Source of the DNA: a virus
Lineage: Duplodnaviria; Heunggongvirae; Uroviricota; Caudoviricetes
Length of the DNA: 64,000 nt
Virus record (IMG/VR): IMGVR_UViG_3300047320_000132
Coordinates: 67,101 to 131,100 of that record
Strand: one strand, 5' to 3'
Shown piece after piece: positions 26,461-44,150 of this stretch; position 1 is the stretch's first letter; every line of letters begins with the position of its first letter. Made by a program: the position numbers and the translations under genes. The notes under the pieces are model-generated. The model was not told the DNA's origin. It saw nothing but the letters and a program-made list of their open reading frames with translations, and ran no database searches.

Positions 26461-26462
26461 AG

Positions 26463-27017: not shown

Positions 27018-27080
27018 AGTTCGAATCCTTAATATGAATTATAAAAGATTCGAACCTTAAATGCAAATAGTTATTAATAC

Positions 27081-27165: not shown

Positions 27166-27179
27166 AACAGAGAAGAATT

Positions 27180-27362
27180 ATGTCTTCTAAAACAACGCAG
27201 TACAAGGACATGGTCCTGTCTACCAACACAGATCTTTTCAAAGCAGTTCAGGACGGTGAAACTGAAAAAGCTGCGCAGATGTACAAAGATCTGAACGACG
27301 CCTTCTATAAAGCTAACCCTGGGTGGAAGCCCTATCCTTCGAAGGTGAAACATGTCGCATAA
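27180..27362 (+). CDS. hypothetical small protein
   Basis: 61 aa from the internal Met. The upstream part of the track ORF overlaps tRNA-Tyr. Confidence 0.3.
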   Translation: MSSKTTQYKDMVLSTNTDLFKAVQDGETEKAAQMYKDLNDAFYKANPGWKPYPSKVKHVA

Positions 27363-27735: not shown

Positions 27736-27747
27736 AGGAAATGTATA

Positions 27748-28020
27748 ATGAGTTTTATCCAAACAGTTGAAGACGACGTTAAAGCAGTAGTCGCAAAGAT
27801 TGAAGGTCTGTTCCACAGCAAGACTGCTGAAGAGATCAAGACCGAGCTTGAAGCAGAGGTCAAGAAGATTCAAGACGCTGCTGAAGCAAAGATCGAAGCG
27901 CTTCGTGCAAAGATTCAGCCGAAGATTGACGCAAAGCTTGCCGAAATTAAAACGGATGTTGCAGCAGCAGTTTCGACAGCAGTTGCAGATGGCGTAAAGA
28001 GCGCAATCGAAAAGGCTTAA
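27748..28020 (+). CDS. hypothetical coiled-coil protein rich in Ala, Lys and Glu
   Basis: 90 aa of amphipathic helix repeats. Confidence 0.45.
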   Translation: MSFIQTVEDDVKAVVAKIEGLFHSKTAEEIKTELEAEVKKIQDAAEAKIEALRAKIQPKIDAKLAEIKTDVAAAVSTAVADGVKSAIEKA

Positions 28021-28029
28021 AGTTTCAAT

Positions 28030-28106
28030 GTCGGGATAGCCAAATTGGTTAAGGCCTTCGCCTGCAAAGCGAAAGATTGAGAGTTCGAGTCCCTCTCCCG
28101 ACTCCA
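28030..28106 (+). tRNA. tRNA-Cys (GCA)
   Basis: Acceptor GTCGGGA/TCCCGAC. Anticodon stem TTCGC/GCGAA, loop CTGCAAA. T-loop TTCGAGT. CCA encoded. Confidence 0.7.
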
Positions 28107-28155
28107 GTTATAACAGGTCCCGCTGCTACCTGATAAAGAAAGCAGCCCAAACACT

Positions 28156-28230
28156 GGCTCCATCGTATAGTGATTATTACACTCCCCTGTCCAGGGAGAT
28201 ATCGGAGTTTGATTCTCCGTGGGGTCGCCA
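28156..28230 (+). tRNA. tRNA-Asp (GTC), non-canonical D- and T-loops
   Basis: Anticodon stem CTCCC/GGGAG, loop CTGTCCA. T-arm CGGAG-TTTGATT-CTCCG. The D-loop lacks GG. CCA encoded. Confidence 0.6.
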
Positions 28231-28702
28231 ATACAGTAGAAGCACCATGTCTGAACTGAGTTTGAAGGATCACGTTAAAGGATCCGTAGTTTTGAAAAGT
28301 ATCACAAAGGTAATCTTTGGTATACTACTTCGTCTGGACTTGAGTTTCCGGTTCCGATTTCAGATACTGGTGATGCTGAGTTTCATATCTCTGATAAAGC
28401 GCTGTTATTCATGCGCTGGATTAGAAAGCACCTAGATGAAATTGCAAAAGCAAAGCAAGAGCAAGAAGTAAGCATTGGTTAAAAGAACCTCCTCCGTTAG
28501 GTTGCGCAGTGCCCCATATGGATCGCTCCCTCGTAAATGGGAAACGTCAGGCCCGAGTGACGTAAATTCTCGGCATCCCAATTCTAGACGCTGAGCGTTA
28601 AAGCTCACTGCCAGAAGTTAAACAGACATCCCGTGTGGGGATTAGATCTGCGGGGGTATGGCCGTTACGACCTGGACAATGTCGCTAAACTTTTGTCCAC
28701 AC

Positions 28703-28780
28703 GCCCGTATAGCTCAGTTGGTAGTAGCACTCGCCTTGTAAGCGAGAGGTCACTGGTTCGAATCCTAGTTACGGGCACCA
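28703..28780 (+). tRNA. tRNA-Thr (TGT)
   Basis: Perfect acceptor GCCCGTA/TACGGGC. Anticodon stem CTCGC/GCGAG, loop CTTGTAA. The T-arm register is ambiguous (one extra nt or one mismatch). Confidence 0.6.
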
Positions 28781-28787
28781 GTATTTC

Positions 28788-28863
28788 CCCCAGGTAGCTC
28801 AGTTGGTAGAGCGGCATGTTGAAGCCTTGCGCGTCGGAGGTTCGAGTCCTTCTCTGGGGACCA
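28788..28863 (+). tRNA. tRNA-Phe (GAA)
   Basis: 76 nt with standard numbering. Anticodon loop TTGAAGC. T-arm GGAGG-TTCGAGT-CCTTC. CCA encoded. Confidence 0.65.
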
Positions 28864-28873
28864 GTTTAACAAT

Positions 28874-28951
28874 CGCGGAGTAGAGCAGCCCGGTAGCTCA
28901 GCAGGCTCATAACCTGAAGGTCGGTGGGTTCAAATCCCCCCTCCGCAACCA
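28874..28951 (+). tRNA. initiator-like tRNA-fMet (CAT) with C1-A72 mismatch
   Basis: CGCGGAGTAGAGCAGCCCGGTAGCTC...GGCTCATAACC...TTCAAATCC...CTCCGCAACCA is very close to E. coli tRNA-fMet and includes the unpaired C1-A72 end that marks initiator tRNAs. Confidence 0.7.
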
Positions 28952-28956
28952 AACAA

Positions 28957-29032
28957 CGGAACTTAGCTCAGTTGGTAGAGCCTCGGATTTACATTCCGAA
29001 TGTCACAGGTTCGACCCCTGTAGTTCCGACCA
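28957..29032 (+). tRNA. tRNA-Val (TAC)
   Basis: Perfect acceptor CGGAACT/AGTTCCG. Canonical D-arm. Anticodon stem TCGGA/TCCGA, loop TTTACAT. CCA encoded. Confidence 0.75.
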
Positions 29033-29049
29033 TTAATAACGAGGTAGAC

Positions 29050-29256
29050 ATGGCAACCGATAGTAAAGAAATCGTTCGTGTATTCCGCAGTTACAAAAAA
29101 GAGAATGGTTGGCCGATGGCTCACGAAGCTGCTAACCTAATCGAGAAGTTAGAGAAAGAAGTAGCAGATTTGAAGATTGGTATTGAAGTTCTCTGCAAAC
29201 AACTAGGTGAAGCTAATCATAATCACCTTGCATATCTAGTCGATCAACTTAAATAG
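29050..29256 (+). CDS. hypothetical protein
   Basis: 69 aa from the Met after tRNA-Val. The longer track ORF overlaps three tRNAs. Ends with TAG. Confidence 0.4.
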   Translation: MATDSKEIVRVFRSYKKENGWPMAHEAANLIEKLEKEVADLKIGIEVLCKQLGEANHNHLAYLVDQLK

Positions 29257-29261
29257 ATTTA

Positions 29262-29339
29262 CCCTGCTTAGCTCATGTCTGGTAGAGCACTCGACCGATA
29301 ATCGAGAGGTGCCTGGATCGTCGCCAGGAGCAGGGACCA
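29262..29339 (+). tRNA. tRNA-Ile (GAT)
   Basis: Perfect acceptor CCCTGCT/AGCAGGG. Anticodon stem CTCGA/TCGAG, loop CCGATAA, with C at position 33. T-loop ATCGTCG is unusual. CCA encoded. Confidence 0.65.
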
Positions 29340-29475
29340 AACAAAGCAATATGAACCACCTAGAAGAAGAAGCAGCCTGGTGTAGAGCGCAGCTTAAAGA
29401 AATGGTTGGAGACAGGTTGTACAAGTGTAGTTGCTGGATTTTGCATACAGACGAATGTGAAAGAAGGAACAAAGA

Positions 29476-29718
29476 ATGTTTGATCGATCAGAACGCAGAC
29501 ACCACGTCGAAAGGTTAAAAGAAACACGCAAAGCATACGGTTGGCGTAAAGAACCGTTGACACCCAGGCAACTCGGTGCAGTAGTACAACATCCGCAGAT
29601 GTGTTCCTGCTCTGGGTGTGGAAATCCTCGTAGACACAAGTGGTTTAAGAGCGAGTGTTTAACTCTTCAGGAACGTTCACAATTAGAAGCTCTTAAAACT
29701 TACGAGTTTGAAGGGTAA
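29476..29718 (+). CDS. hypothetical basic Cys-containing protein
   Basis: 80 aa with a CSCSGC motif. Confidence 0.35.
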   Translation: MFDRSERRHHVERLKETRKAYGWRKEPLTPRQLGAVVQHPQMCSCSGCGNPRRHKWFKSECLTLQERSQLEALKTYEFEG

Positions 29719-29728
29719 TTTCAACAGT

Positions 29729-29806
29729 CCGAGTGTAGGCTAGCCAGATTAAGTCGTCTGCTTTGGGAGCAGAAAATCGCAGGTTTGAATCCTGCCACTC
29801 GGACCA
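29729..29806 (+). tRNA. tRNA-Pro (TGG), non-canonical D- and T-loops
   Basis: Acceptor CCGAGTG/CACTCGG. Anticodon stem TCTGC/GCAGA, loop TTTGGGA. T-arm GCAGG-TTTGAAT-CCTGC. The D-loop lacks GG. CCA encoded. Confidence 0.6.
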
Positions 29807-29817
29807 CTCTTTTCACT

Positions 29818-30033
29818 ATGACAACCCTATATCAAATCAAGCTTGTTGTGGATCGTGTTTATCCTGAATACAAAGCCAATAGTGGTTTCATCGATAGTCT
29901 TGACGTCGTAGAAATCGTAATGGCTGTAGAAGATCAACTCAACGTTCAATTCGACGATTACAAACTTGAGAAGTTTCAGGCCGATACTCCGCTGGCGGAT
30001 ATTCCTGAAATTCTTTACGGAGCATTGGTTTAA
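29818..30033 (+). CDS. acpP: Acyl carrier protein
   Basis: 72 aa. SGFIDSLDVVEIVMAVEDQLNVQFDD carries the DSL phosphopantetheine-attachment serine in the usual helix-II context. Start moved to the Met after tRNA-Pro. Confidence 0.6.
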   Translation: MTTLYQIKLVVDRVYPEYKANSGFIDSLDVVEIVMAVEDQLNVQFDDYKLEKFQADTPLADIPEILYGALV

Positions 30034-30090
30034 TGTTTAACGACGCATACTTTCACAATTGGCATAGTAGACCATATAGAGGAAACTACT

Positions 30091-30492
30091 ATGTCACGCA
30101 CTTATCGCCGTCAAAAGGGTTACGTTCCTAAATACGTTATCGATGCGACTGAGCCTCTCAAAGGCCCGGATGCAGAAGACGCTGAACGTCTGACCGATCC
30201 CAAGAACTTCTACCGTGGAAAAATCCCCGGTTGGTACAAGGGTTACGCAAAGGTTAACGGGCAGTGGTTCCGCTACGGAACTAACAAAGCTTTCGGTCAG
30301 CAAATGGCTTTCTGGTTCGGGGATCACGGCTACGCCTGGCGTCGTCTCTACGGAAAGGACACTTGCAAATTTGTCCGAGGGCACACCCAGGTCCAGTACC
30401 GTATGGATGCCAAGTTGGAACTCGACAAGTACCGCAAGAACCCTGATTACGAAGTACAAATTCCCCGCAAGAATCTCTTGCCGTGGGACTGA
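30091..30492 (+). CDS. hypothetical protein
   Basis: 133 aa rich in aromatic and basic residues. Confidence 0.45.
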   Translation: MSRTYRRQKGYVPKYVIDATEPLKGPDAEDAERLTDPKNFYRGKIPGWYKGYAKVNGQWFRYGTNKAFGQQMAFWFGDHGYAWRRLYGKDTCKFVRGHTQVQYRMDAKLELDKYRKNPDYEVQIPRKNLLPWD

Positions 30493-30494
30493 AC

Positions 30495-30525
30495 AACGCC
30501 CAGCTTAGGCTGGGCTTTTTATTTG
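30495..30525 (+). terminator. intrinsic terminator
   Basis: GCCCAGCTTAGGCTGGGC hairpin followed by TTTTTATTT. Confidence 0.6.
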
Positions 30526-30533
30526 GAGAAATC

Positions 30534-31148
30534 ATGAGCTGGAGCATCGCCCTGCTTGAGAATACTGTCGAAGTTTCTGCAAAGATTGCGGAAGAGTTAG
30601 TTAAGGCCCAAAGCTATAAGGGAGAATTCTGGAGCAACGGATTTGAAGTAACTTACAAGGGTAAGCTTTACTTCAACCCCGATCACTCCGAACACATGGA
30701 CTTTTTAACAGACGAAAAGTTACTGGAAGTACTGACGAAGAACAAGGTTGAAGGCAGGATCTGTTTCGCTTCGCTTGAAGGCGACAACAGAGGTGAATTT
30801 TGGGGCTATGAATTTGATGGCAAAGGCGCAGTGCATGCGCTTGTAGGCTCCCTTGTATTTCAGCGTAAAATTGTCGAGCCGGAAATCCAATTTCCAAAAG
30901 AATACGTCCTGGTTAAAACCTCACGAGTATACTACGGTGGTCCAGTCCGAGAACCACACCTACCGGTTACCTCTTTGGACGTGGCTATAGCCCTTGCACG
31001 GGGCTCGGTTAATCCAGTTGGGTACGATGTATATGAACTGGTTCCCCGAGGCACTGAAGCCCTGCATCCAGTTTGGAGATATGCCGATCGTGCTTCATAT
31101 AAACAGGCAGTAGATCAGATTGACCCCCTTCATGACGGAGTTGAGTAA
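30534..31148 (+). CDS. hypothetical protein
   Basis: About 204 aa. Start moved to the Met with the GGAGAA RBS, because the track start overlaps a terminator hairpin at 30495-30522. Confidence 0.5.
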   Translation: MSWSIALLENTVEVSAKIAEELVKAQSYKGEFWSNGFEVTYKGKLYFNPDHSEHMDFLTDEKLLEVLTKNKVEGRICFASLEGDNRGEFWGYEFDGKGAVHALVGSLVFQRKIVEPEIQFPKEYVLVKTSRVYYGGPVREPHLPVTSLDVAIALARGSVNPVGYDVYELVPRGTEALHPVWRYADRASYKQAVDQIDPLHDGVE

Positions 31149-31324
31149 TGGAAGTCAAAGTTCAACTTACAACAGAAGAAGTAAAACAGGCTATTAAGAA
31201 TTACGTGAATACACAAGGAATGAGCCTCTCTGTTAAAGAAATACAATTCGGGGACAGAGGTGAAGCTACTGTTACTTGTGAAAAGGCGAAGCACCCAACT
31301 GGTTTTGGAGCATACGATCGATGA
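31148..31324 (+). CDS. hypothetical small protein
   Basis: About 58 aa (MEVKVQLTTEEVKQAIKNYV...). ATGA overlap with the previous gene. Below the ORF-track length cut-off. Confidence 0.3.
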   Translation: MEVKVQLTTEEVKQAIKNYVNTQGMSLSVKEIQFGDRGEATVTCEKAKHPTGFGAYDR

Positions 31325-31424
31325 GCTGGCCTGAAGCTTTCGCAACAGTAGGATGCGCATTTGCGTTCGTAGCGTTTATCTGGATCTTGACACGCTAACT
31401 GTGTTTTATTAAACTAGCAGTATT

Positions 31425-31500
31425 GGGAATATAGCTCAGTTGGCAGAGCAGCGGATTCTAAATCTGAAGGTCTCGGGTTCGAGCCCCGATGTTCCTACCA
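31425..31500 (+). tRNA. tRNA with CUA anticodon (amber suppressor-type). Amino acid identity unresolved.
   Basis: A 76-nt canonical cloverleaf. Acceptor GGGAATA/TGTTCCT. D-arm GCTC-AGTTGGCA-GAGC. Anticodon stem GCGGA/TCTGA, loop TTCTAAA, so positions 34-36 are CTA. Short variable arm. T-arm TCGGG-TTCGAGC-CCCGA. A73. CCA encoded. Confidence 0.55.
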
Positions 31501-31614
31501 AACATTTAAAGGAATTACCATGAAGCTCGATAAGCTCTAGGTTACGAAGCCTCCGTAAGACAACCTTACCTAAAAGCACCGTAGTACCTACACTTTTACT
31601 TAAGGAAATTAATC

Positions 31615-31938
31615 ATGTCTTACATTTATTCAATCATTCGCAAAGATATTCCCCTCGCAGATCAGATCGTTCAGACTGCGCATTCCGCATTTCACGCTGG
31701 CCAAGCCGATCCGAAAAACGGTGCGGCATTAGATTGTGAAATCCCTTCGCTGGTCCTCTTGCAGGTGCCAAACGAAGAAGCCTTGCTTGAGCTTCACAAA
31801 AAACTTAAGGCTGCAGGCATCGTTCACAGCACGTTCCACGAGCCTGACGATGACATGGGTTGGACGTCGATCACGACCGTGTCTATTAATCAGGAAGATC
31901 GTAAGCTCTTTAGTAATTTGCCTTTGTGGAGACCCTAA
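31615..31938 (+). CDS. divergent PTH2-like peptidyl-tRNA hydrolase candidate
   Basis: 107 aa. The N-terminus IYSIIRKDIPLADQIVQTAHSAFHAG parallels the PTH2 motif (vvRxDLxMxxGKxaAQxxHA). The rest of the protein is divergent. Confidence 0.4.
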   Translation: MSYIYSIIRKDIPLADQIVQTAHSAFHAGQADPKNGAALDCEIPSLVLLQVPNEEALLELHKKLKAAGIVHSTFHEPDDDMGWTSITTVSINQEDRKLFSNLPLWRP

Positions 31939-32166
31939 ATGAACGATAGGATTCTTATCTTCTACAATAAGGCGCATAACACTGATACCTCAATACCGCC
32001 GTGGGTCTGCCAATCTAAAGGTCAGACATACAATGTTAATCATATTACAATCGGAAGTGGCATTGGCTTCTCGACCAAGGAGAGGCCCGACCACTCTAGT
32101 ACCAAGGCGTGTCTCGTTGTTAAAGGTACGTTGACGATCAAGGATGGTGAGGCGTTGATAAATTAA
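31939..32166 (+). CDS. hypothetical protein
   Basis: 75 aa. Confidence 0.3.
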   Translation: MNDRILIFYNKAHNTDTSIPPWVCQSKGQTYNVNHITIGSGIGFSTKERPDHSSTKACLVVKGTLTIKDGEALIN

Positions 32167-32212
32167 TCTTTACAACTTTTCTTTAGATGTATGTTTAGAG
32201 TAAAATAGAAAT

Positions 32213-32758
32213 ATGAACTCTGACATACTTCAACCCTTGATAGATATGGGATTGACAGCCAAAGAAATGAGTGAACATCTTGGCTGTTCAATTCATAAAG
32301 TAAAGTACTACATGAAAAAACTGGGTATTAAAACCCAGCTTGCCCAAAAGTACGATTCATACGTTTCGTATGAACAATTAAAAACTAAAATTTGCCGCTC
32401 TTGCAAATTAGAAAAATCTGTTTTTGAATTTAGAAAAGTTGTTATATCTGGTAAAGAAAAACCCGGCTCTTATTGCAAAGCGTGTGTAAAGCAACAAAAC
32501 TATGCAGCTAAAAATAGTATTAAAAAACAGGCCTTAGATTATAAAGGTAATAAATGCCAGTGTTGCGGATACGACAAATATGAAGGCGCTTTAGAATTTC
32601 ATCATTTAGATCCTAAAGAAAAAGACTTTCTTATTTCTAGATACGGACGAGACGCTACTTTAAATGACAAAGATTTATTTACAGAATTAGATAAATGTGC
32701 TTTACTGTGTTCCAATTGTCACCGTGAGGTTCATGCAGGACTCATTAAACTAGATTGA
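32213..32758 (+). CDS. HNH homing endonuclease with N-terminal HTH, paralog of the gene at 41978
   Basis: 181 aa. GNKCQCCGYDKYEGALEFHHLDPKEKDF...LLCSNCHREVH is near-identical in its C-terminal half to the 41978 protein. Confidence 0.75.
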   Translation: MNSDILQPLIDMGLTAKEMSEHLGCSIHKVKYYMKKLGIKTQLAQKYDSYVSYEQLKTKICRSCKLEKSVFEFRKVVISGKEKPGSYCKACVKQQNYAAKNSIKKQALDYKGNKCQCCGYDKYEGALEFHHLDPKEKDFLISRYGRDATLNDKDLFTELDKCALLCSNCHREVHAGLIKLD

Positions 32759-32760
32759 GT

Positions 32761-32770
32761 TTGGTATAAG
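32761..32770 (+). promoter_or_regulatory. TTGGTATAAG promoter motif upstream of the tRNA-like elements and the AAA+ gene
   Basis: TTGGTATAAGAGAATTGTG. Confidence 0.45.
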
Positions 32771-32798
32771 AGAATTGTGAAAGAACATTTCTTTTATA

Positions 32799-32868
32799 AA
32801 CAAAATAGCTCAATTGGTAGAGCGCACATACTCTTGTGAGGCTGGGGGCTCGTATCCCCCTTTTGTTA
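32799..32868 (+). ncRNA. tRNA-like element (pseudo-tRNA?) with canonical acceptor and D-arm but a defective anticodon arm
   Basis: Acceptor AACAAAA/TTTTGTT. D-arm TA-GCTC-AATTGGTA-GAGC. T-arm GGGGG-CTCGTAT-CCCCC. The anticodon region does not form a standard 5-bp, 7-nt stem-loop. Lies 28 nt downstream of a TTGGTATAAG promoter. Confidence 0.35.
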
Positions 32869-32884
32869 GCTTAGTAAACTTCTT

Positions 32885-32968
32885 GGGCGTGACACCGTGC
32901 GCTGGCAGGTAACGGCCTCATAAGCCGTCGGAGAAATCCCATCGTGGGTTGGAATCCCACCGCGCCCA
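32885..32968 (+). ncRNA. tRNA-like element with CAT anticodon loop, long variable arm and an over-extended terminal stem
   Basis: Acceptor GGGCGTG/CGCGCCC. Anticodon stem ACGGC/GCCGT, loop CTCATAA. 15-nt variable arm. T-arm GTGGG-TTGGAAT-CCCAC. The terminal helix extends to 13 bp (AACTTCTTGGGCG/CGCCCAAGAAGTT), which is not tRNA-like. Confidence 0.35.
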
Positions 32969-33052
32969 AGAAGTTTATTGAGAAGCTTTATAACCACCCC
33001 TCTGAAGTCTAGAGGGGTTTTTCTTTGCAGCACTTTTTGTAGCCTAATCGAT

Positions 33053-35116
33053 ATGGAAACGAAGGAAATCAACGTGAGTGACATTCAAGAACAAATCGCG
33101 GAATCGAATGCAGGCGCTGCTATTGGCGAAGTTGCCAAGGCTGATGTACCCGCTGTCGCTCCGGAAGTCGCTGCGGCGGCTGCACAAGCTGCAATGATCG
33201 CAGAAGTGGTCAAGGCTGCTCTCGAAAACGCCGGTCTTGGCAAGACGGATCCGATCGCAGAAATCGCGGCGATCTCGATCAGCAGCGACGAAATGCCTGT
33301 CGCTTCCCGTCCGATTGCAGAAGTGATTCCGGGCCGTACTGGACAGATCAAGGTTTATGTTCCGTATGACATTCGTGCGGACATGAACAACTATGGTCGT
33401 GTCATCGGCAGCCGTATGAACACGTCCACGAACGAGTTCAACTACATCAACAACCCGGCACAGTTCAACGTTGCTCGTGGCGCGGGTATGGTTGGCGGTC
33501 TGGAAATCTTCAAGAACCGTTCGAACATCGAATCGTACCTGAACAACCTGGACGACTACAACGACGATCAGGACTTCATCGAACGTGTTCGTTCGCAGAT
33601 GACCCGTATCCTCGAAGAAGTGAATGCGTTCTACGCAAACACTCTCGGCAATATCAGCAATCTGTCGGTCAACAACGAGTTCACGTATGACGAACTCGCC
33701 GTTCTCCTGGCTCAGCCTGGCATCAAGCTGGTTGTCGAAGACGACTTCGCCCTGGTTTGTGTTACGACTCACGCTGCAAGTCAGCAGATGAGCATGAGCG
33801 GCCCGTACATCGCTGCAGCTGGGCATATGTACGCACGTAACGGTCAGGAAATTCAGCAATTCACGCATCAGTACTACTTCGGTGGTTACGACGGCAAGAA
33901 GAGCCTGAAGGAACTGGGCATCACGCCGTTGGAATCGGATGCTGAACTCAAAGCCCGTCTCCTCGCTCGTGGCAAGCGCGGTGTCGAAGTTACGGCTTCG
34001 TCGTCGTACATGCAGTACAAGGGCGATCTGGTTCGTCGCGGCTACTGGAGCAACACGGCTTTCCGTTCGACGGGTCGTGTCATGATCGACTTCCAGGCAA
34101 TGCGTATCATGGATCCGAACTACCGCAAGTTCTTTGGCGGAACTCAGGATCGTGACTCGTACGGCTACACGGCCAAGGCTGAAACGGTGAAGCTGAGCGA
34201 TGACGTGTATCTGACGTTCTCGCCGTATGTTTATGGCTTCTCGTTCCTGTCGAAGGTCTGGGGTGAAATGCTGGTCGACAACATCACTCCGATTCAGTTC
34301 CGTACGGATGCTTACGGCAAGCTGGTGATGGACGAAGATCAGAAGGAAATGATCGTGTCGCTGGTGGAAACCCAGCTGGAAGGCAAGAAGGTCGACATCA
34401 TCGATGGCAAGGGTGGTGGCACGATTTTCCTGCTGGCCGGTGAACCGGGTACTGGCAAGACGCTTACTGCTGAAGTTACGGCAGAGCATCTGAAGCGTCC
34501 GCTGTACATGGTTGGCGTTGGCGAACTCGGGACGAGTGCCAGCGAGCTGGAAGACAATCTGCGTCAGGTTCTGGATATCGCCGCGACGTGGAATGCAGTG
34601 CTCCTGCTTGACGAATGCGACATCTTCATGGAAGCCCGTACGGATAGCAATATCCAACGGAATGCTATGGTCGGTGTTTTCCTGCGTCTGCTGGAATACT
34701 ATCAAGGCGTTCTGTTCCTGACGTCGAACCGTGCAAGCAACATCGACAAGGCGTTCTACTCCCGTATCAGCATGGCGATTAACTTCCCTGCGCTGACTAC
34801 TGGTGACCGTGTTCAAATTTGGGAGAACAACCTCAATATGAATTCGGTGCAACTCACCGCGACGGAAATTCTTTACCTTGCCGAAACCTACGAGATCAAT
34901 GGTCGTCAGATCAAGACGGCTACTCGCAACGCTTCGGCTCTGGCACTGAAAGGCAAGCGTCCGACGGACATCAAGGACTTCCAACTGATCCTCAACAAGG
35001 GTCTGGAATTCCAGAAGGCGGTGTTCGAACGTGGTGGCAAAAACGACATGACGTTGCTGGGCATGCACAAGGATGCTCACGTCGTTGCTGACGTCGAGTT
35101 CAAAGACGTTAAGTAA
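33053..35116 (+). CDS. Large AAA+ ATPase with an approximately 450-aa N-terminal domain of unknown function
   Basis: Walker A GEPGTGKTLTA. Walker B VLLLDECDIF. Sensor-1 LFLTSNRASNID. Arg finger region FYSRIS. Codons are visibly GC-rich compared with the flanking genes. Start moved to METKEIN. Confidence 0.75.
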   Translation: METKEINVSDIQEQIAESNAGAAIGEVAKADVPAVAPEVAAAAAQAAMIAEVVKAALENAGLGKTDPIAEIAAISISSDEMPVASRPIAEVIPGRTGQIKVYVPYDIRADMNNYGRVIGSRMNTSTNEFNYINNPAQFNVARGAGMVGGLEIFKNRSNIESYLNNLDDYNDDQDFIERVRSQMTRILEEVNAFYANTLGNISNLSVNNEFTYDELAVLLAQPGIKLVVEDDFALVCVTTHAASQQMSMSGPYIAAAGHMYARNGQEIQQFTHQYYFGGYDGKKSLKELGITPLESDAELKARLLARGKRGVEVTASSSYMQYKGDLVRRGYWSNTAFRSTGRVMIDFQAMRIMDPNYRKFFGGTQDRDSYGYTAKAETVKLSDDVYLTFSPYVYGFSFLSKVWGEMLVDNITPIQFRTDAYGKLVMDEDQKEMIVSLVETQLEGKKVDIIDGKGGGTIFLLAGEPGTGKTLTAEVTAEHLKRPLYMVGVGELGTSASELEDNLRQVLDIAATWNAVLLLDECDIFMEARTDSNIQRNAMVGVFLRLLEYYQGVLFLTSNRASNIDKAFYSRISMAINFPALTTGDRVQIWENNLNMNSVQLTATEILYLAETYEINGRQIKTATRNASALALKGKRPTDIKDFQLILNKGLEFQKAVFERGGKNDMTLLGMHKDAHVVADVEFKDVK

Positions 35117-35150
35117 TCTGTAACGAAGGCCGGGCTTAGTCCCGGCTTTC
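35117..35150 (+). terminator. terminator-like hairpin after the AAA+ gene
   Basis: GCCGGGCTTAGTCCCGGC followed by TTTCTCT, a weak T-run. Confidence 0.4.
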
Positions 35151-35165
35151 TCTCGGGAGAATACA

Positions 35166-35546
35166 ATGAGTAAAGTACTGAAAAAGTTGAAGGCTATTCG
35201 CCGTCTGGTCAAGAACATTCCGGGCAAGAACATCGACTTGGACAAGTTTGTTACGACGAATGGGGCTACATACACAGACTCTGTGATGTGCCCTGCGGCC
35301 TGGATCACAACCGACGTGTTCGTTGGTAAAGGCCTGTATCTCGTCGAAGACGAGCACGGACTGTGGAAAATTACCTATAGGTCCAAAGACAACTTCGAAG
35401 CCCTGGCTGAATTTCTGGGTGTTTCAGAAAACGAAGCTGGTGATCTGTTCGGCCCGGTTTTCCACAATGAAGCGTGGGGAGGGTATCTCTCTCACAAAAA
35501 GCTCTTCCTTCAACGTATCGATAACCTGATCGAGGCGTACAAATAA
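35166..35546 (+). CDS. hypothetical protein
   Basis: 126 aa. Starts after a terminator-like hairpin at 35117-35150. Confidence 0.45.
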   Translation: MSKVLKKLKAIRRLVKNIPGKNIDLDKFVTTNGATYTDSVMCPAAWITTDVFVGKGLYLVEDEHGLWKITYRSKDNFEALAEFLGVSENEAGDLFGPVFHNEAWGGYLSHKKLFLQRIDNLIEAYK

Positions 35547-36028
35547 TGGATCCGATTGAAAGACTAAAGCAACTGGAAGCTGAACTCGCTGCTGTGAAAC
35601 TGCAGATCGCCGCTGAAGCTCGGGCTCCTGGCTTTAAGAAGGCAGCGGCGGGGGATACGTATCATCGGATCTATCAAGACTTCGACGGTTCGTTCAAAAC
35701 CTCCGCAAACACTGGCGCTCCTGCGTTTTCGCGTCGTCCTCTGTTTGGTAACAAAACCCAGGCAATGGACTTTGCGAATGCAATCCAGACCATTCTGGAA
35801 ATGCGTATACAGCCTGGCATGATGGTTCCGGAACCTCATGAAACTTCGGTGGTTGTAATTCCGCAGCGCAATGGTACAATCAAGTACCAGTCCAGCAAAT
35901 GTACGGACGCAATTCCGTCGACTATCTACGCTCGTTTCAAGACAGTCGAAGCTGCAAAGGCAGCAGTCGCTGCAGTTGGCGAAACGCGTGTCATTGCAGC
36001 AGCAAAGACGCTGGCATTTTTCAAATAA
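35546..36028 (+). CDS. hypothetical protein (N-terminal coiled coil, Ala-rich)
   Basis: 160 aa. ATGG overlap with the previous gene. Confidence 0.45.
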   Translation: MDPIERLKQLEAELAAVKLQIAAEARAPGFKKAAAGDTYHRIYQDFDGSFKTSANTGAPAFSRRPLFGNKTQAMDFANAIQTILEMRIQPGMMVPEPHETSVVVIPQRNGTIKYQSSKCTDAIPSTIYARFKTVEAAKAAVAAVGETRVIAAAKTLAFFK

Positions 36029-36034
36029 CAAACC

Positions 36035-36235
36035 ATGAAGAAAATCGCAGCAGTTGCCTACGGGATTTTGGCAACGCTCTATCTGTTGTTCCTGCTGTTG
36101 CCCGTAACACAGCAGTTGGTTAATAATGGAGGCGACCTGATTTACTTCGTGCCGCTGCTGTGGTTGACCATCCCGCTAATCGCCTTTGGCGGTTGGTATT
36201 TCTTCCTCAAACCAAAGAAACAAAAAACACAATGA
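36035..36235 (+). CDS. small membrane protein
   Basis: 66 aa with two TM helices. ATGA overlap with the SPFH gene. Confidence 0.4.
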   Translation: MKKIAAVAYGILATLYLLFLLLPVTQQLVNNGGDLIYFVPLLWLTIPLIAFGGWYFFLKPKKQKTQ

Positions 36236-37077
36236 AGAAACTTCTTCTTATCGTCGTTGTATTCATGCTCGGTGCCTGTACCAAGGTTGGCGCAGGCTTC
36301 GTCGGTGTTCAGGTGGATAACTACGGCAGTGACCGTGGCGTCCAGAACAAGGTTCTCGGCCCGGGTTCGTACTTCACCGGCTGGAACACGACTGTGTACG
36401 AGTATCCGACGTTCACGGAAAACTACGTGTACAGCAAGGCTCCGGAAGAAGGTCATCCGGCCGACGAGTCGATCACGTTCCAGGCAAAGGGTGGCGTTGC
36501 CATCAATGCTGACTTCGGTGTTGCGTATCACATCGCTGCAGACAGTGCTCCGCTTGTGTTCCAGAAGTACCACAAGGATCTGAACGGTATTACCGACGGT
36601 CCTTTGCGTAACCTTATCCGTGACAGTCTTAACGAAATCGCGGGTAAGCTTACCTTCGAGCAGATCAGCAATGACATTCCGGCCTTCATGGTTGCTGTTA
36701 ACGCTGAACTCGCCAAGCGTGCAGCACCTAGCGGGTTGTCGGTTGAACTGCTCTCGAACGTAGGCGCATTCCGTTGGCCTCCTGCGATTCAGGATTCCAT
36801 CAATGCTCAGCAACAGGCAAAGATGGACGCTATCACGTCGCAGAACCAGCTGCAGAAAACCCAGGCAGATGCTGCAAAGCGTATTGCCAATTCGGATGCC
36901 GACCTGAAGATCGCTGCAAACGAAGCACAAGCTACGGCTATTCGTGGTCAGGCACTGGCCAAGAACCCGGAGATTCTGCAACAAATGTGGATCGAAAAGT
37001 GGAACGGTCAACTTCCGACGTATCAACTCGGCAGTGGCAGTTCGGCTCTTATCCAGCTTCCGAAAATGGGTAACTGA
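36232..37077 (+). CDS. SPFH/band-7 (prohibitin/HflKC-like) lipoprotein
   Basis: Lipoprotein signal MKKLLLIVVVFMLGAC. SPFH core around ITFQAKGGVAINADFGVAYHI. A C-terminal coiled-coil Q/A-rich region is typical of flotillin/HflK-like proteins. Confidence 0.7.
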   Translation: MKKLLLIVVVFMLGACTKVGAGFVGVQVDNYGSDRGVQNKVLGPGSYFTGWNTTVYEYPTFTENYVYSKAPEEGHPADESITFQAKGGVAINADFGVAYHIAADSAPLVFQKYHKDLNGITDGPLRNLIRDSLNEIAGKLTFEQISNDIPAFMVAVNAELAKRAAPSGLSVELLSNVGAFRWPPAIQDSINAQQQAKMDAITSQNQLQKTQADAAKRIANSDADLKIAANEAQATAIRGQALAKNPEILQQMWIEKWNGQLPTYQLGSGSSALIQLPKMGN

Positions 37078-37079
37078 TC

Positions 37080-37256
37080 ATGTTAGGCTTACTTGCTTTC
37101 GTAGCTGCAAAATGTGTTGAACGATACATTGGTCTCGATGATGCGGGCAGAGAAGACGTAAATGAAGGTCTTAAGGAACTCAAGGATATGGTCGTGGGTT
37201 CTGACGAAAGTAAGAAGCCTGATCCTGAACCGTGGCCGTTTCCTCGCAGTAAGTAG
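37080..37256 (+). CDS. hypothetical small membrane-anchored protein
   Basis: 58 aa, directly after the SPFH gene. Below the track cut-off. Confidence 0.3.
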   Translation: MLGLLAFVAAKCVERYIGLDDAGREDVNEGLKELKDMVVGSDESKKPDPEPWPFPRSK

Positions 37257-37590
37257 TTTCAAGTTTCTCTTAACGACTTGGTATAAGTACATTACGGAAC
37301 ACCTATAATTTAGTTGTTCCGTTCTTCTTCAGGTGAAACCGTGTTTCTTCCTAAAGTCATCCGTGACCTTTTCCGCATTGATACGAATCCAGTCGTTTCG
37401 ATCGATGAGGAACAAATTCCGAAAACCTGTGCAGAACATCGCAGCAGAGTGATTCTGGACAATCAGTCAGCAGCACCAGTACTGGTACACTACCGAAAGC
37501 AACGTCGAGTAGTGTCGCAGCAATTGTAGTACTTTGTTTTTCCCTTCCCAAACTCGCTGAAGTTTTCGCATATAAATGGAGAGTATTCAA

Positions 37591-38674: not shown

Positions 38675-39205
38675 ATGAAAGAAGAGCGTCAGACACCTTT
38701 GGTTTCGATTAACCCTAAAGACCTACGCATCGACTGTTATGGCGGTGCCGTAGGTGGTCAAAGAGTAGGAATGGCTAATGGTGTGAGAATCACGCACATC
38801 CCTAGCGGTATTGTGACCGAATGCATTACAGAACGCAGTCAACACAAGAACAGAAACGCGGCCTTGAAAGAACTCGAAGAGCTAGTCTATGTGTGGGAAG
38901 GTTCCAAAGTATCGGAGCCTCATCCTGACGATTTCGCAGTAGACAAGTTCGCAGCCATGATGAAAGCGAAGCTTGCAAAGTCTCGTGAGAAGGGTAGAAG
39001 CGGTTGGGATGATCCAGAACAATGCAGTACAAAACGATTAGCGAATCTTCTTGTCAGCCATGTCCCCAAAGGGGATCCCGTAGACATTGCAAATCTGGCA
39101 ATGATGCTGGCGCTAAGAGAAGCCGACCCGGCATTGCTAAAAGACGCCTTTGAAGGCGAAGCTATGGCCATGATGGAACGGGAAGGCTGGTCTTCTGGAG
39201 GCTAA
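38675..39205 (+). CDS. GGQ-motif peptidyl-tRNA hydrolase domain protein (class I release factor-like; ArfB/PrfH-like)
   Basis: 176 aa. [48 protein letters not shown] is the RF-1 catalytic domain signature (GGQ plus the ERSQ..N block). The C-terminal half is unrelated. Confidence 0.65.
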
Positions 39206-39229: not shown

Positions 39230-39384
39230 GAGAGTTGTATAAGAAGTAGCCTTTAATTCTGCATCTCTCTTTTTTGGTTGGTCAAAATGCGTCGCCGTAA
39301 TACCCTTAAATTCGCAGGCTACGTCATGTGTGTCGTAGTTGGATTCACCTGCGTTCTACTAACAGCAAAACTCGGAGTAACGAA

Positions 39385-39801
39385 ATGAACAACGAAATCA
39401 AACAGGAATGGATCTCTGCTCTGCGTAGCGGCGAATACAAACAAGCCAAACATGTCTTGAACGGTGACGGCGGCATGTGTTGTCTTGGCGTTCTCTGTGA
39501 TCTTTACATGAAGAAAACTGGAGAAGGTGAATGGGTGCCGAGAACCGCTAAGGAGGAAGATAGCAGGGTTTTGCAAAAGTATACTTCCATTGGTACATTT
39601 GAAGGGTCAGAAGTTGTACCTCCTGCTAGTGTTATGAAATGGGCCGATCTCGACAAGGAAAATCCCAATACTGGAATTTACCAGGGATTTACAAAGTCCT
39701 TTGAAGATACCCCTGGCTACTTGGGGTATTCTTTGGCCGAACTCAACGACGGTGGGCTTACCTTCAACCAGATTGCTGACGTTATTCAATTCACGCTATG
39801 A
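39385..39801 (+). CDS. tandem paralog 1 of a five-gene family of short acidic proteins
   Basis: Conserved N-terminus MNNEIKQEWISALRSGEYKQ...GMCCLGVLCDLY and conserved C-terminus LNDGGLTFNQIADVIQ, with a variable middle. Preceded by a 33-aa membrane mini-ORF with an ATGA overlap. Confidence 0.6.
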   Translation: MNNEIKQEWISALRSGEYKQAKHVLNGDGGMCCLGVLCDLYMKKTGEGEWVPRTAKEEDSRVLQKYTSIGTFEGSEVVPPASVMKWADLDKENPNTGIYQGFTKSFEDTPGYLGYSLAELNDGGLTFNQIADVIQFTL

Positions 39802-40151
39802 ACCAAGAAATCAAAGCAAAGTGGGTAGCTGCGCTTCGCAGCGGTGAGTACAAACAGAGCGTCGGCTACTTGAAAAGAGACGATGGGTTCTGTTGCCTCG
39901 GAGTCCTTTCCGATGTTCACGCAAAGGAAGGAGGTCCGCAATGGGAACATGCTGGCTCTGGGATTCAAGAGGTTGAACGCTGTGGGGGGTATCCCCCTCA
40001 AGTAACTCTTAATTGGGCTGAATTCGCAGAAACTTCTCTCGTTCCTGGTTTGCTTACCAGAGAAGGGGATGGGGAAGGCTTGGTAAGCCTGAACGACTCC
40101 GGTGAATTCACCTTTTCTCAAATCGCTGACGTTATCGAGTACTTCTTCTAA
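39798..40151 (+). CDS. tandem paralog 2
   Basis: MNQEIKAKWVAALRSGEYKQ...GFCCLGVLSDVH...LNDSGEFTFSQIADVIEYFF. ATGA overlap. Confidence 0.6.
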   Translation: MNQEIKAKWVAALRSGEYKQSVGYLKRDDGFCCLGVLSDVHAKEGGPQWEHAGSGIQEVERCGGYPPQVTLNWAEFAETSLVPGLLTREGDGEGLVSLNDSGEFTFSQIADVIEYFF

Positions 40152-40501
40152 TGAACCAAGAAATCAAAGCCAAGTGGGTAGCTGCGCTTCGCAGCGGAGA
40201 ATATGTCCAAGGTCAACGATACCTGAATGGTCCCGATGGATTTTGTTGTCTGGGTGTTTTATGTGATCTATACGGTAAAGAAACTGGAGAAAAATGGTTC
40301 GATGAAGGAGGTGACGGAAAACGCATGCTGGACGGCTGGACTGTTCCTCCGCTACAAGTCCAGAAGTGGGCGGATCTTGGTAGTGATCTCGGATACACCG
40401 GCGTAGAAACTCCGGCTACTGACTCTGTTTCGCTTGTCGATCTAAATGACTCTGGTCTGCCTTTCTCTCAAATCGCTGACATCATCCAATACGCACTGTG
40501 A
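40151..40501 (+). CDS. tandem paralog 3
   Basis: MNQEIKAKWVAALRSGEYVQ...GFCCLGVLCDLY...LNDSGLPFSQIADIIQYAL. ATGA overlap. Confidence 0.6.
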   Translation: MNQEIKAKWVAALRSGEYVQGQRYLNGPDGFCCLGVLCDLYGKETGEKWFDEGGDGKRMLDGWTVPPLQVQKWADLGSDLGYTGVETPATDSVSLVDLNDSGLPFSQIADIIQYAL

Positions 40502-40854
40502 ACAACGAAGTTAAAGCCAAATGGGTAGCCGCTCTTCGGAGCGGTGAATACAAACAGGGAACAACTAGACTCAAGACTGTTTGGGATGAAGAAAATCCGA
40601 AGTTTTGCTGTCTTGGAGTTCTCTGTGATTTGCATGACAAGGAACTCAACTGCGAACAATCGTTTGAAAGCATCGCAGGAGAATTACCTGATCATGTAAA
40701 AAAGTGGGCGGGTTTGGAAGAAAACAACCCGTACATGCGTCAACCAGCTTCGCTTGCTTATCCGAAAGAATGGAGAACTCATATTTCTGTTCTTAACGAC
40801 ATCAAGCAATTTTCTTTCAACCAACTAGCTGATCTCATCGAAGCACAACTATGA
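40498..40854 (+). CDS. tandem paralog 4
   Basis: MNNEVKAKWVAALRSGEYKQ...KFCCLGVLCDLH...LNDIKQFSFNQLADLIEAQL. ATGA overlap. Confidence 0.6.
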   Translation: MNNEVKAKWVAALRSGEYKQGTTRLKTVWDEENPKFCCLGVLCDLHDKELNCEQSFESIAGELPDHVKKWAGLEENNPYMRQPASLAYPKEWRTHISVLNDIKQFSFNQLADLIEAQL

Positions 40855-41219
40855 AAAAGCGTATCAAGAACAAATGGATCAAGGCACTGCGCGGCGGTGA
40901 TTACAAACAGACTACGGGTGCGTTGCGTGACGACGAAGGTTTCTGTTGCCTCGGCGTTCTATGCAACATCCATGCTCAGGAACATCCTGAAGTTGCGGCG
41001 AAAGAACCCTGGCCAGACGAATATATGGGCGCTAGTGGCTTGCTTCCCCTGGCGGTAGCTGAATGGGCTGGACTCAATCCTTCTGTTTTGGACTCGGCTG
41101 ATGTACCGACCGATGTCAAAGTCACGTATCGTGGGAAAGAAACTAAGCTTTCTACGTTGAACGACACTGACCAACTCAGCTTCAAGAAGATCGCCCGAGT
41201 CATTGACCGCTGTTTGTAA
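40851..41219 (+). CDS. tandem paralog 5 (most divergent)
   Basis: MKKRIKNKWIKALRGGDYKQ...GFCCLGVLCNIH...LNDTDQLSFKKIARVIDRCL. Confidence 0.55.
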   Translation: MKKRIKNKWIKALRGGDYKQTTGALRDDEGFCCLGVLCNIHAQEHPEVAAKEPWPDEYMGASGLLPLAVAEWAGLNPSVLDSADVPTDVKVTYRGKETKLSTLNDTDQLSFKKIARVIDRCL

Positions 41220-41247
41220 GCCTGTAATTCAATTACGTACGTACGAC

Positions 41248-41257
41248 TTGGTATAAG
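41248..41257 (+). promoter_or_regulatory. TTGGTATAAG promoter motif upstream of the His/Ala-rich secreted protein gene
   Basis: CTTGGTATAAGTTAATTAGG. Confidence 0.45.
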
Positions 41258-41331
41258 TTAATTAGGAAGCACTATAGTTTATTATGGTTTTTCCTTTTTT
41301 CCCTTTTCAAATTTAACAAGAAGAAGTAAGA

Positions 41332-41610
41332 ATGAAAAACTTGATGCTCGCTGCTGCTGCAATGGTTATCGCAACGTCCGCTATGGCTTATGGCGTTTCC
41401 GGTGGCCACGCTTCTGCTGGTCATGTTTCCGTTTCGGCTCACTCGGCACCTTCGGTTCACACCGCAGTTGTTGAAGCCCACACTGCTCCGGTTGCTCACG
41501 AGGCACCCGTCGCAAAGGCTCCCATAGCCAAGACCCCGGTTATCGTGCCGGTCGGTCATGTTTCCGCAGCAAAGCCTGTAAGCGGCGCTTCTGCCGTGAA
41601 GGGTAAGTAA
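41332..41610 (+). CDS. secreted His/Ala/Val-rich repetitive small protein
   Basis: 92 aa. Signal peptide MKNLMLAAAAMVIATSAMA, then low-complexity repeats (HASAGHVSVSAHSAPSVHTAVVEAHTAPVAHEAPVAKAP). Confidence 0.5.
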   Translation: MKNLMLAAAAMVIATSAMAYGVSGGHASAGHVSVSAHSAPSVHTAVVEAHTAPVAHEAPVAKAPIAKTPVIVPVGHVSAAKPVSGASAVKGK

Positions 41611-41977: not shown

Positions 41978-42502
41978 ATGACAAAACAAGAACTTGAACA
42001 GATGACTAAAGAAGGATGGTCAACTAGAAAAATCGCGGCCCATTTTGGAGTTAGCCAATCTAGTATCAGATACCATCTTTATAAACACGATCTTAAAACA
42101 TCGACTTTTTCATATTTAAAAGTTGAAGGGAAACCTGATTGGAGAAGATGCTCTACTTGCAAACTTGAATTTCCTATTACGGAATTTCAAAAAATAAAAA
42201 ATACAGAACGATATAGAACTTCGTGTAAAAGTTGTATTTCAAATCACTTAAAGGAAATAAGAGTAAATACTAAAAGTTCGGCAGTTGAATATAAAGGCGG
42301 TAAATGCCAACTGTGTGGATACAATAAATCTCATGCTGCCTTAGAGTTTCACCACAGAGATCCTAAAGAGAAAGATTTTGGAATTGCCAAACAATGGTAT
42401 AGAAAATTAGATGATATTTTGAAGAGAGAATTAGATAAATGTGATTTGCTTTGTTCAAATTGTCATCGAGAAGTGCATGAGCAGTTAAACACAACCAAGT
42501 AG
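41978..42502 (+). CDS. HNH homing endonuclease with N-terminal HTH, paralog of the gene at 32213
   Basis: 174 aa. GGKCQLCGYNKSHAALEFHHRDPKEKDF...LLCSNCHREVH. Confidence 0.75.
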   Translation: MTKQELEQMTKEGWSTRKIAAHFGVSQSSIRYHLYKHDLKTSTFSYLKVEGKPDWRRCSTCKLEFPITEFQKIKNTERYRTSCKSCISNHLKEIRVNTKSSAVEYKGGKCQLCGYNKSHAALEFHHRDPKEKDFGIAKQWYRKLDDILKRELDKCDLLCSNCHREVHEQLNTTK

Positions 42503-44148: not shown

Positions 44149-44150
44149 AC

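Follow-up and report, generated by a model that had tools for sequence, protein, structure and literature searches.

The genes of an AAA ATPase and of an SPFH protein are encoded close together in the FtsH–HflK/HflC and m-AAA–prohibitin systems, and the same closeness is found in a block of genes at positions 33053–37260 of a 64,000-nucleotide (nt) stretch of phage DNA (hereafter the window; positions 67,101–131,100 of the IMG/VR record IMGVR_UViG_3300047320_000132). The block holds the gene of a 687-amino-acid (aa) AAA+ ATPase, the coupled genes of tm66, a small protein with two transmembrane (TM) segments, and of an SPFH/Band-7 lipoprotein, as well as the small genes p126, p160 and p58. We read the block, with a probability of roughly 0.6, as a long-conserved accessory segment that consists of two separable units from a shuffled ancestral arm. 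Unit 1 would be the ATPase gene, bracketed by hairpins, and unit 2 the genes from p126 to p58, with the tm66–SPFH pair as its core. The ATPase and SPFH genes would then be adjacent because both come from an ancestral accessory arm that was shuffled between lineages, and not because of mutual need. Shared ancestry of this arm is the simplest reading and accounts for the adjacency better than a two-part system would, and the SPFH cassette probably works independently of the ATPase.

The proteins of the block differ in several respects from those of the closest described systems. Compared with FtsH, the phage ATPase lacks a TM anchor (five relatives scanned), a periplasmic domain and an M41 protease, and it scores 16.9 with the NCBIfam FtsH model, whose cut-off is 1008. 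The SPFH protein begins with a signal peptide and a lipobox instead of a TM anchor; it is thus predicted from the lipobox to be lipid-anchored, unlike the TM-anchored HflK and HflC, whose NCBIfam models do not match it at E ≤ 0.01. Members of PHROG 200 (such as Burkholderia phage phiE125 gp43, phi1026b gp48, Staphylococcus phage MbpS and a Stx2a-phage 'serine protease') match it over the full length with 25–41% identity and have in common with it the lipobox Cys, the SPFH domain, the coiled coil and the motif KW(D/N)GxLP. Most PHROG 200 loci also have a coupled small TM open reading frame (ORF) upstream, and nothing essential differs in the window copy, although its position 1.1 kb from a DUF7025-AAA gene is unusual for PHROG 200. 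The NfeD–SPFH operons of bacteria and archaea likewise have a membrane-protein gene directly upstream of the SPFH gene and co-translated with it, an operon logic cited in PMC9872710 as its reference 7. However, tm66 has only 66 aa with two TM helices, and Pfam gave no match to it and no NfeD or OB-fold domain. T5 Llp and lambdoid Cor are phage lipoproteins that exclude superinfecting phages. They resemble the SPFH protein in being phage-encoded exported lipoproteins, and the SPFH genes of temperate phages lie in moron-like positions, but there is no sequence relationship. The DUF7025-AAA ATPases of fungi, Klosneuvirinae-type giant viruses and large phages are homologous to the window ATPase over residues ~200–650, including the entire AAA module; the window protein differs in a sub-threshold match to PF22942 (DUF7025) and in an extra Ala-rich N-terminal stretch of ~100 residues. 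Finally, IetA provides the best-scoring AAA module among known defence proteins, but the window ATPase reaches about a tenth of that family's cut-off, has no IetS partner and carries a different N-terminal domain.

All of the ORFs listed in the preliminary description of this DNA are present. The features of the block and its immediate surroundings are as follows.

32799–32868, + strand: tRNA gene upstream of the block (Rfam RF00005, 49.5 bits; no ARAGORN call)
32884–32969, + strand: tRNA-Met gene, anticodon CAT (ARAGORN; Rfam 37.1 bits), the last tRNA gene before the ATPase gene
32996–33018, + strand: terminator-like hairpin, then TTTTTCTTT (terminator scan; 9-bp stem, -14.6 kcal/mol, z = -2.8)
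33053–35116, + strand: AAA+ ATPase, 687 aa (Pfam AAA, PHROG 29662)
33350–34402, + strand: N-terminal domain of the ATPase (residues 100–450), a helical bundle and then strand-rich modules
33044–35308, - strand: antisense ORF of 754 aa opposite the ATPase gene, an artefact
35125–35150, + strand: hairpin rich in guanine and cytosine (GC), possible terminator or attenuator (10-bp stem, -18.2 kcal/mol, z = -2.1)
35166–35546, + strand: p126, 126 aa (ORF list)
35546–36028, + strand: p160, 160 aa (ORF list)
36035–36235, + strand: tm66, two-TM protein, 66 aa (two hydrophobic segments)
36232–37077, + strand: SPFH/Band-7 lipoprotein, 281 aa, PHROG 200 (Pfam Band_7, PHROG)
37080–37256, + strand: p58, 58 aa, hydrophobic N-terminus (ORF list; gene call on a Logan contig)
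37294–37322, + strand: hairpin, then TCTTCTTC, downstream of p58 (fold of 37250–37390; not in the consensus terminator scan)

The ATPase gene has hairpins on both sides. The upstream one lies 35 nt before its start codon, and the downstream one, between the ATPase stop and the p126 start, has a weak T tract and is absent from the consensus terminator scan. From p126 through p58 the genes overlap or sit 2–6 nt apart: the sequence GGGAGA upstream of p126 resembles a ribosome-binding site, the SPFH start codon at 36232 overlaps the tm66 stop as ATGA, and the hairpin at 37294–37322 is a possible end of the p126-to-p58 transcription unit. This layout suggests that the ATPase gene is transcribed by itself and that p126–p160–tm66–SPFH–p58 form a second transcription unit. 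The 754-aa antisense frame had already been set aside as an artefact, and rightly so. It is intact in the closest relative and reduced to pieces of 158–390 aa in other relatives (including L009 and L010; loci and lineages from our searches carry L numbers), and this fragmentation marks it as a by-product of the ATPase codon pattern; the homology evidence at this locus is all on the + strand.

The gene order of the block is conserved in four IMG/VR contigs of 88–181 kb, in which the ATPase is 61–73% identical to that of the window. The common order is g31615, g31939, ATPase, p126, tm66, SPFH, p140, p68, p67, p176 and an array of DUF8296 paralogues. A fifth, more distant metagenome contig, L177, has the order ATPase, p126, two-TM gene, SPFH, p140, p68. 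SPFH orthologues in the relatives show 83–90% identity and tm66 70–98%. The homologues of p126 occur only directly after the ATPase gene, in L002–L005 and L177; with no match in Pfam, PHROG, NCBIfam or PADLOC and none by tblastn in isolate phages, p126 is specific to the window's phage clade. Only p160 and p58 are lineage-specific. p160 is an insertion between p126 and tm66: the four relatives all lack it and have tm66 immediately after the p126 homologue, it has no homologue in IMG/VR or isolate phages, and it recurs in two Logan assemblies of the same phage (SRR26076556 and SRR26076592). p58 gave no tblastn match in the relatives and is variable between them.

To compare how often the ATPase and SPFH genes occur together, ATPases above 80% identity were merged, giving 53 lineages, and the SPFH gene was counted as near when no more than 10 kb separated it from the ATPase gene. 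The SPFH gene is near the ATPase in 10 of these 53 lineages. Eight of them belong to one neighbour-joining clade of 10 (contigs of 31–53% GC), and the remaining two, L015 and L036, are isolated lineages with the genes directly adjacent. The order in L036 is SPFH, TM89 (with a 4-nt overlap) and, 35 nt later, the ATPase, with a NAMPT gene preceding SPFH; the order in L015 is ATPase, p100, tm93, SPFH. By tblastn the adjacency is seen in the window's clade only, but a search with a profile of diverse phage SPFH proteins, confirmed by Pfam Band_7, found extra SPFH genes near the ATPase in the viral loci L013, L015 and L036 and in the metagenome loci L177, L179, L180 and L181. No SPFH gene is near the ATPase in 40 viral loci that match the AAA module only, nor in 80 bacterial loci. 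Viewed from the other gene, the ATPase is absent from 76 of 80 SPFH loci (the 80 best in IMG/VR), and the four loci that have it all belong to the window's clade. Among the matches listed, the only isolates with both families are those of the PBS1 group, where the genes lie ~175 kb apart.

Genes of NAD salvage, which served as a control family, accompany the ATPase in a similar way. In L020, L022 and L027 no more than ~1 kb separates NAMPT from the ATPase gene, and NAMPT or NMNAT lies within 10 kb of it in L012, L030, L036, L041 and L188. In Rhizobium phage B1VFA, the genes of NMNAT, NAMPT, two small TM proteins and a prohibitin stand in a row, with the ATPase gene 11.5 kb further on; this row resembles the order NAMPT, SPFH, TM gene, ATPase of L036. 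The NAMPT control and the B1VFA gene map make a functional pairing less likely. The preliminary description had suggested that the ATPase and the SPFH protein form a system. They are indeed neighbours in several lineages, but the system itself is left in doubt, since most ATPase phages have no SPFH gene nearby, 76 of the 80 SPFH loci have no ATPase and the NAD-salvage genes do equally well. As a separate observation, NMNAT and NAMPT are frequent near both DUF7025-AAA and SPFH genes in distant phages (L020, L022, L027, L036 and L337 at 13589–17267), and these NAD-salvage neighbours suggest an old shared accessory arm. We also noticed that the gap between the SPFH and ATPase genes in two AT-rich contigs (L180 at 3249–5581 and L179 at 7476–9454) is filled with arrays of Cys-rich paralogues of ~56–89 aa. 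Several of them end in CPFQ and others begin with M(T/K)KYR(V/L/I)(I/L)H(I/V)P(S/T)G, and they look like rapidly expanding gene families.

The SPFH cassette has a wide distribution of its own. The call of an SPFH/flotillin-like lipoprotein is upheld by Pfam Band_7 (PF01145; residues 19–210, E = 2.1e-22, 80.5 bits against a cut-off of 23.6) and by PHROG 200, annotated as 'lipoprotein' (E = 4.9e-65). The alignment shows the lipobox Cys, the SPFH domain, a coiled-coil region and the C-terminal motif. Of 16 aligned proteins, 15 have Cys16 of the lipobox, which is followed by Thr here and by Asp in the Stx2a, Munch and Burkholderia copies; the C-terminal motif KW(D/N)GxLP is present, with W257, G259 and P262 invariant in a nine-sequence alignment. 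Full-length SPFH homologues are found in at least 679 isolate phage records, with hosts that include Staphylococcus, Pseudomonas, Klebsiella, Erwinia, Escherichia, Burkholderia, Caulobacter and Bacillus, and also in the Lak phages of Prevotella and others. A coupled small partner gene is present in about three quarters of the loci. tm66 has hydrophobic segments at residues 2–26 and 32–54, and the ORF abutting the SPFH start encodes a two-TM protein in 51 of the 80 IMG/VR loci and a one-TM protein in 9 more; the two-TM partner often has the loop motif LPxL(I/V)SA and a basic tail. A tblastn search with tm66, even at E = 10, gave no match, probably from masking of the hydrophobic segments. Burkholderia phage phiBt-TXDOH, Salmonella phage Munch and Agrobacterium phage OLIVR5 show the same two-TM–SPFH arrangement, and so does a Stx2a phage (record LC567842), where the two-TM ORF is unannotated. 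Two-TM partners, often overlapping the SPFH gene, were noted in the IMG/VR SPFH loci L257–L336 and in L088 (3855–4004), L090 (~1300–1490), L091 (1316–1501) and L092 (1250–1501). The tm66–SPFH cassette is found in hundreds of unrelated lytic and temperate phages. In the Stx2a phage its neighbours are xis and int, and in the Burkholderia phage it lies close to the repressor. Such positions near a repressor or xis/int are typical of prophage-expressed genes.

What the cassette may do can be sketched from its domains and from other phage lipoproteins. The SPFH lipoprotein would be exported and lipid-anchored, and would form oligomers at the periplasmic side of a membrane by means of its SPFH domain and coiled coil. 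Its two-TM partner would sit in the cytoplasmic membrane, and the pair would alter the behaviour of the envelope, the likeliest effect being exclusion of superinfecting phages or stabilization of the membrane during infection. Superinfection exclusion, by analogy with other phage lipoproteins, is the most likely role. A 2026 paper describes the role of SPFH genes in phage genomes as unclear (PMC13239085), and an HflK/C-like protein of a Pasteurella prophage is reported to be released in outer-membrane vesicles (PMC9872710). Our literature searches on SPFH with phage, superinfection exclusion or anti-phage returned nothing mechanistic. The family is common yet unstudied, its carriers include Stx-converting phages and large Staphylococcus myophages, and the coupled two-TM and SPFH genes offer a well-delimited pair for cloning and testing.

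The ATPase appears to be a member of a different group. The motifs GEPGTGKT, LLLDECD and TSNRASN given in the preliminary description are all found in its translation, and Pfam AAA (PF00004) matches residues 460–579 (E = 1.3e-17; 64.9 bits, with the cut-off at 21.2); the match to PHROG 29662 has E = 3.7e-45. The protein can be divided into an Ala-rich, weakly conserved stretch (residues 1 to ~100), a folded N-domain (100 to ~445) and the AAA module with its lid (457–640). PF22942 (DUF7025) matches residues 207–294 with 18.1 bits, below the cut-off of 27; the L015 ATPase reaches 63.8 bits with the same model, and L013 also matches it. The database search returned 177 homologues, many of them with PF22942, PF00004 and PF23232, and the homologous part extends from roughly residue 200 up to the C-terminus. 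The close homologues are metagenomic, and the more distant ones are found on contigs of up to 326 kb, in a Hydrotalea and a Nitrososphaeraceae metagenome-assembled genome and in many fungi. The fungal-type AAA lid PF23232 has no match to the window ATPase at E ≤ 0.01, and its scores are sub-threshold (20.7–24 bits) in the relatives L177, L179 and L036. Judged by its sequence, the ATPase probably belongs to this uncharacterized DUF7025-AAA family, on which (DUF7025 or PF22942) a full-text literature search found no paper.

Conserved residues of the ATPase are those expected of an active enzyme. Relatives have in common the start METKEINV and, in the N-domain, the motifs GRVMID and YGFSF..K.WGE. 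Among 25 aligned homologues G463–T470, D520/E521, N559, R571 and N616-G617-R618 are invariant. By alignment with Cdc48 and by what is typical of AAA modules, we take G463–T470 to be Walker A, D520/E521 Walker B, N559 sensor 1, R571 the arginine finger and R618 sensor 2. The AAA module is closest to Cdc48/p97 among PDB entries. An aromatic residue of pore loop 1 is absent, and the aligned position reads G490-E491-L492-G493-T-S. The D1 ring of Cdc48 likewise has no aromatic at this position; thus, its absence does not exclude substrate threading. The N-domain could be modelled with confidence, and its model resembles AAA ATPases of giant viruses (E between 9e-20 and 7e-14); no counterpart was found among solved structures. 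No genuine partner family recurs beside the bacterial AAA homologues, where the recurring ORFs are shadow frames of high-GC DNA. In a hydropathy scan the ATPases of five related loci (L013, L036, L177, L179 and L180) were free of TM segments, and Pfam showed no protease domain in the window ATPase. These features suggest a soluble ring with a catalytically intact, classic AAA+ module. Its N-domain may bind a protein target, which would be remodelled or disassembled in the cytoplasm at the expense of ATP, as the domain family suggests. The family spans phages, giant viruses and fungi, and the confident N-domain model is a start for substrate trapping. Both the ATPase and the SPFH families are known and neither has been studied functionally; the main by-products of our comparison are the conserved two-TM–SPFH pairing and the likely placement of the ATPase in a phage, giant-virus and fungal family.

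Several observations weigh against two separable units that merely share an ancestry. The two genes are near each other in 10 of the 53 lineages, and L015 and L036 have them directly adjacent while their sister lineages lack the SPFH gene. Within the window's clade the pairing persists over contigs of 31–53% GC while other neighbours change. This pairing pattern is equally compatible with functional coupling and with shared ancestry. The weak T tract of the hairpin after the ATPase gene leaves read-through into the SPFH unit possible, and the activities proposed here are drawn from domain families and from other phage lipoproteins. The corresponding alternative is that the ATPase and the tm66–SPFH pair are one membrane module, the phage counterpart of FtsH–HflK/C or m-AAA–prohibitin, which we consider unlikely. 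The SPFH ring would mark a membrane patch, small TM proteins would link it to the cytoplasm and the ATPase would extract or remodel proteins there, a division of labour that we regard as improbable to the same degree. A Band_7 gene near the ATPase in 10 of 53 lineages, with eight of these in a single clade of 10, speaks for such a module, but most ATPase lineages have no near SPFH gene and 76 of 80 SPFH loci have no ATPase. The genes are tightly packed in L036 and L015, and proximity is kept while the relative order differs between lineages; on the other hand, the listed isolates with both genes are only the PBS1 group (~175 kb apart), the distance in B1VFA is 11.5 kb, and NAMPT and NMNAT adjoin the ATPase to the same degree. 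The absence of SPFH from the 40 loci whose ATPase matches the AAA module alone is also in its favour. However, hairpins bracket the ATPase gene, and the two proteins are expected on opposite sides of the membrane, because the SPFH protein has an export signal and a lipobox and the ATPase has no sign of a TM segment. We likewise think it improbable, and slightly more so, that DUF7025-AAA, two-TM and SPFH genes constitute a membrane-remodelling module in one clade of large phages plus at least two independent lineages. If true, the phage would reorganize or protect the host envelope with a version of the AAA-protease/SPFH partnership of FtsH–HflK/C and mitochondrial m-AAA–prohibitin in which the motor is soluble. 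A further proposal, that the ATPase is the motor of an ietAS-type anti-phage system with an unrecognized effector among its small neighbours, is very unlikely. The IetA models are indeed its best PADLOC matches (up to 62.5 bits, E = 1.1e-17), and IteA_antiphage (NF042959) is its top NCBIfam match, but the latter scores 54.6 bits against a cut-off of 510 and the match is limited to the generic AAA module, with no DUF7025-type N-domain match for IetA. Neither an IetS subtilase nor another protease was found among the neighbours with Pfam, PHROG or PADLOC, the neighbour proteins of the block have no PADLOC match, and the gene lies in the accessory arm of a lytic phage beside metabolic genes. PADLOC and NCBIfam give no tie of the block to a known defence system; a defence role was among the possibilities that the preliminary description had envisaged.

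The remaining alternatives concern the composition of the block, which had been described as a GC-rich island, suggestive of recent acquisition, possibly from a host of higher GC. The shift itself is real: the GC content is 0.520 in the block and 0.454 in the rest of the window. Compared with sliding 4.2-kb windows outside the block (mean 0.454, standard deviation 0.018) this amounts to z = 3.6 and is the highest value of all 4.2-kb stretches, the runner-up being 42.5–46.7 kb with 0.504. The excess lies mainly at third codon positions (GC3), with 0.65 in the ATPase gene, 0.59 in p126, 0.61 in tm66 and 0.60 in the SPFH gene against a length-weighted mean of 0.485 for all + strand genes. The left edge appears sharper than it is because the adjoining HNH endonuclease gene (32213–32758) has only 33.5% GC. 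Recent import from a host or mobile element of higher GC is nevertheless highly improbable. The gene order is kept in the four IMG/VR relatives and in L177, and GC3 in the four IMG/VR relatives is similar: the orthologues of the ATPase and p140 are GC3-rich in four of four IMG/VR relatives and those of SPFH in three of four (0.54–0.55; 0.47 in L004). Such conservation, which the preliminary description had itself named as counting against an island, is what we find. Two tRNA genes and a homing-endonuclease gene just upstream, and p160 as a true lineage-specific insertion, would suit an island, but no direct repeats flank the block (only short chance-like matches), no integrase or recombinase is found among the neighbouring ORFs (ORF list, PHROG), isolate phages hold no near-identical DNA and none of the 80 bacterial loci has the gene set. 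Since gene order and GC3 are kept in the relatives and integration marks are lacking, we do not regard the block as a recent import. The raised GC3 is an old, clade-level property that is common to other accessory genes: similar values are found in ThyX, the NMT1-like gene, the Thg1-like gene, Ro60 and the ORFs at 42525, 43298 and 44475, and not in the genes of primase, polymerase and reductase. In the unrelated AT-rich phages L179 and L180, too, the ATPase and SPFH genes exceed most of their small neighbours in GC. The source of this property may be an old acquisition from cellular genomes or the codon tuning of an expression class. The latter idea, that raised GC3 reflects genes (e.g. early genes) tuned to the host tRNA pool and not their origin, is a tentative one that we hold to be doubtful, as is its corollary that AT3-rich genes depend on the 22–24 tRNAs of the phage. 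It leans on published hypotheses about phage tRNAs. The large tRNA set of the window and the dispersal of GC3-rich genes over the accessory arm, with their composition kept in relatives, are consistent with it, but GC-rich genes of cellular origin would look identical. A compositional island in a phage genome can thus be old and clade-wide, and since the GC3 deviation is so here, composition alone is weak evidence for recent transfer.

The opposite extreme of composition is also represented in the window. Its four lowest-GC genes (31–36%) are at 32213–32758, 41978–42502, 49164–49868 and 61095–61526; the first of these encodes an HNH endonuclease (PHROG 2255, E = 8e-32), and the presence and position of an HNH gene differ between relatives. 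These low-GC HNH endonuclease genes, rather than the GC-rich block, look recently mobile, a further point against the island.

As a whole, the window corresponds to the arm of a large phage genome that is devoted to replication and nucleotide metabolism. Its products are a primase, a DNA polymerase split over two ORFs, a ribonucleotide reductase and ThyX, and further a kinase/phosphatase/ligase fusion, NMNAT, NAMPT, a Thg1-like enzyme and a Ro60 orthologue. Megablast searches with the block and with positions 1–25000 found no close DNA match among isolate phages (50,697 records). Judged by its DNA polymerase, the phage comes closest to the isolates Salmonella phage Arash (49% identity) and Vibrio phages D69, D181 and D148 (46%). 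In our reading the segment belongs to the non-structural arm of a large lytic phage that is distant kin of these isolates.

The tRNA genes occupy 24351–32969 and 44069–45060, with 22 found by ARAGORN and two by Rfam only (32799–32868 and 44885–44956). The tRNA-Met gene at 32884–32969 is bracketed by a 20-nt inverted repeat (32870–32889 and 32963–32982), which would lengthen the acceptor stem. Another tRNA gene, at 31425–31500 on the + strand, has the anticodon CTA, which reads amber; it is labelled tRNA-Pyl by ARAGORN and scores 60.3 bits as a tRNA with Rfam. It could imply amber suppression or stop-codon reassignment during infection.

Downstream of the block, a 176-aa protein with an RF-1 domain of the peptidyl-tRNA hydrolase type is encoded at 38675–39205, and Agrobacterium phage OLIVR5 has a small RF-1 gene of similar kind, two genes ahead of its SPFH cassette. 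DUF8296 paralogues of ~115–140 aa follow in tandem at 39328–41600, with ~5 copies here and 6–8 in relatives (L003–L005 at 13700–16900). The window also carries an RNA-repair and quality-control set at 6180–7019, 15168–17591 and 61957–63579 (a Thg1-like tRNA-His guanylyltransferase, the polynucleotide kinase/phosphatase/ligase fusion and Ro60 with TROVE and vWA domains); Rfam at the gathering threshold detected no known Y RNA over the window. Lastly, the DNA polymerase ORFs at 7120–8361 and 8976–10679 match consecutive parts of PHROG 17, with another ORF at 8345–8983 between them, and the match to the Arash polymerase is likewise in two pieces.

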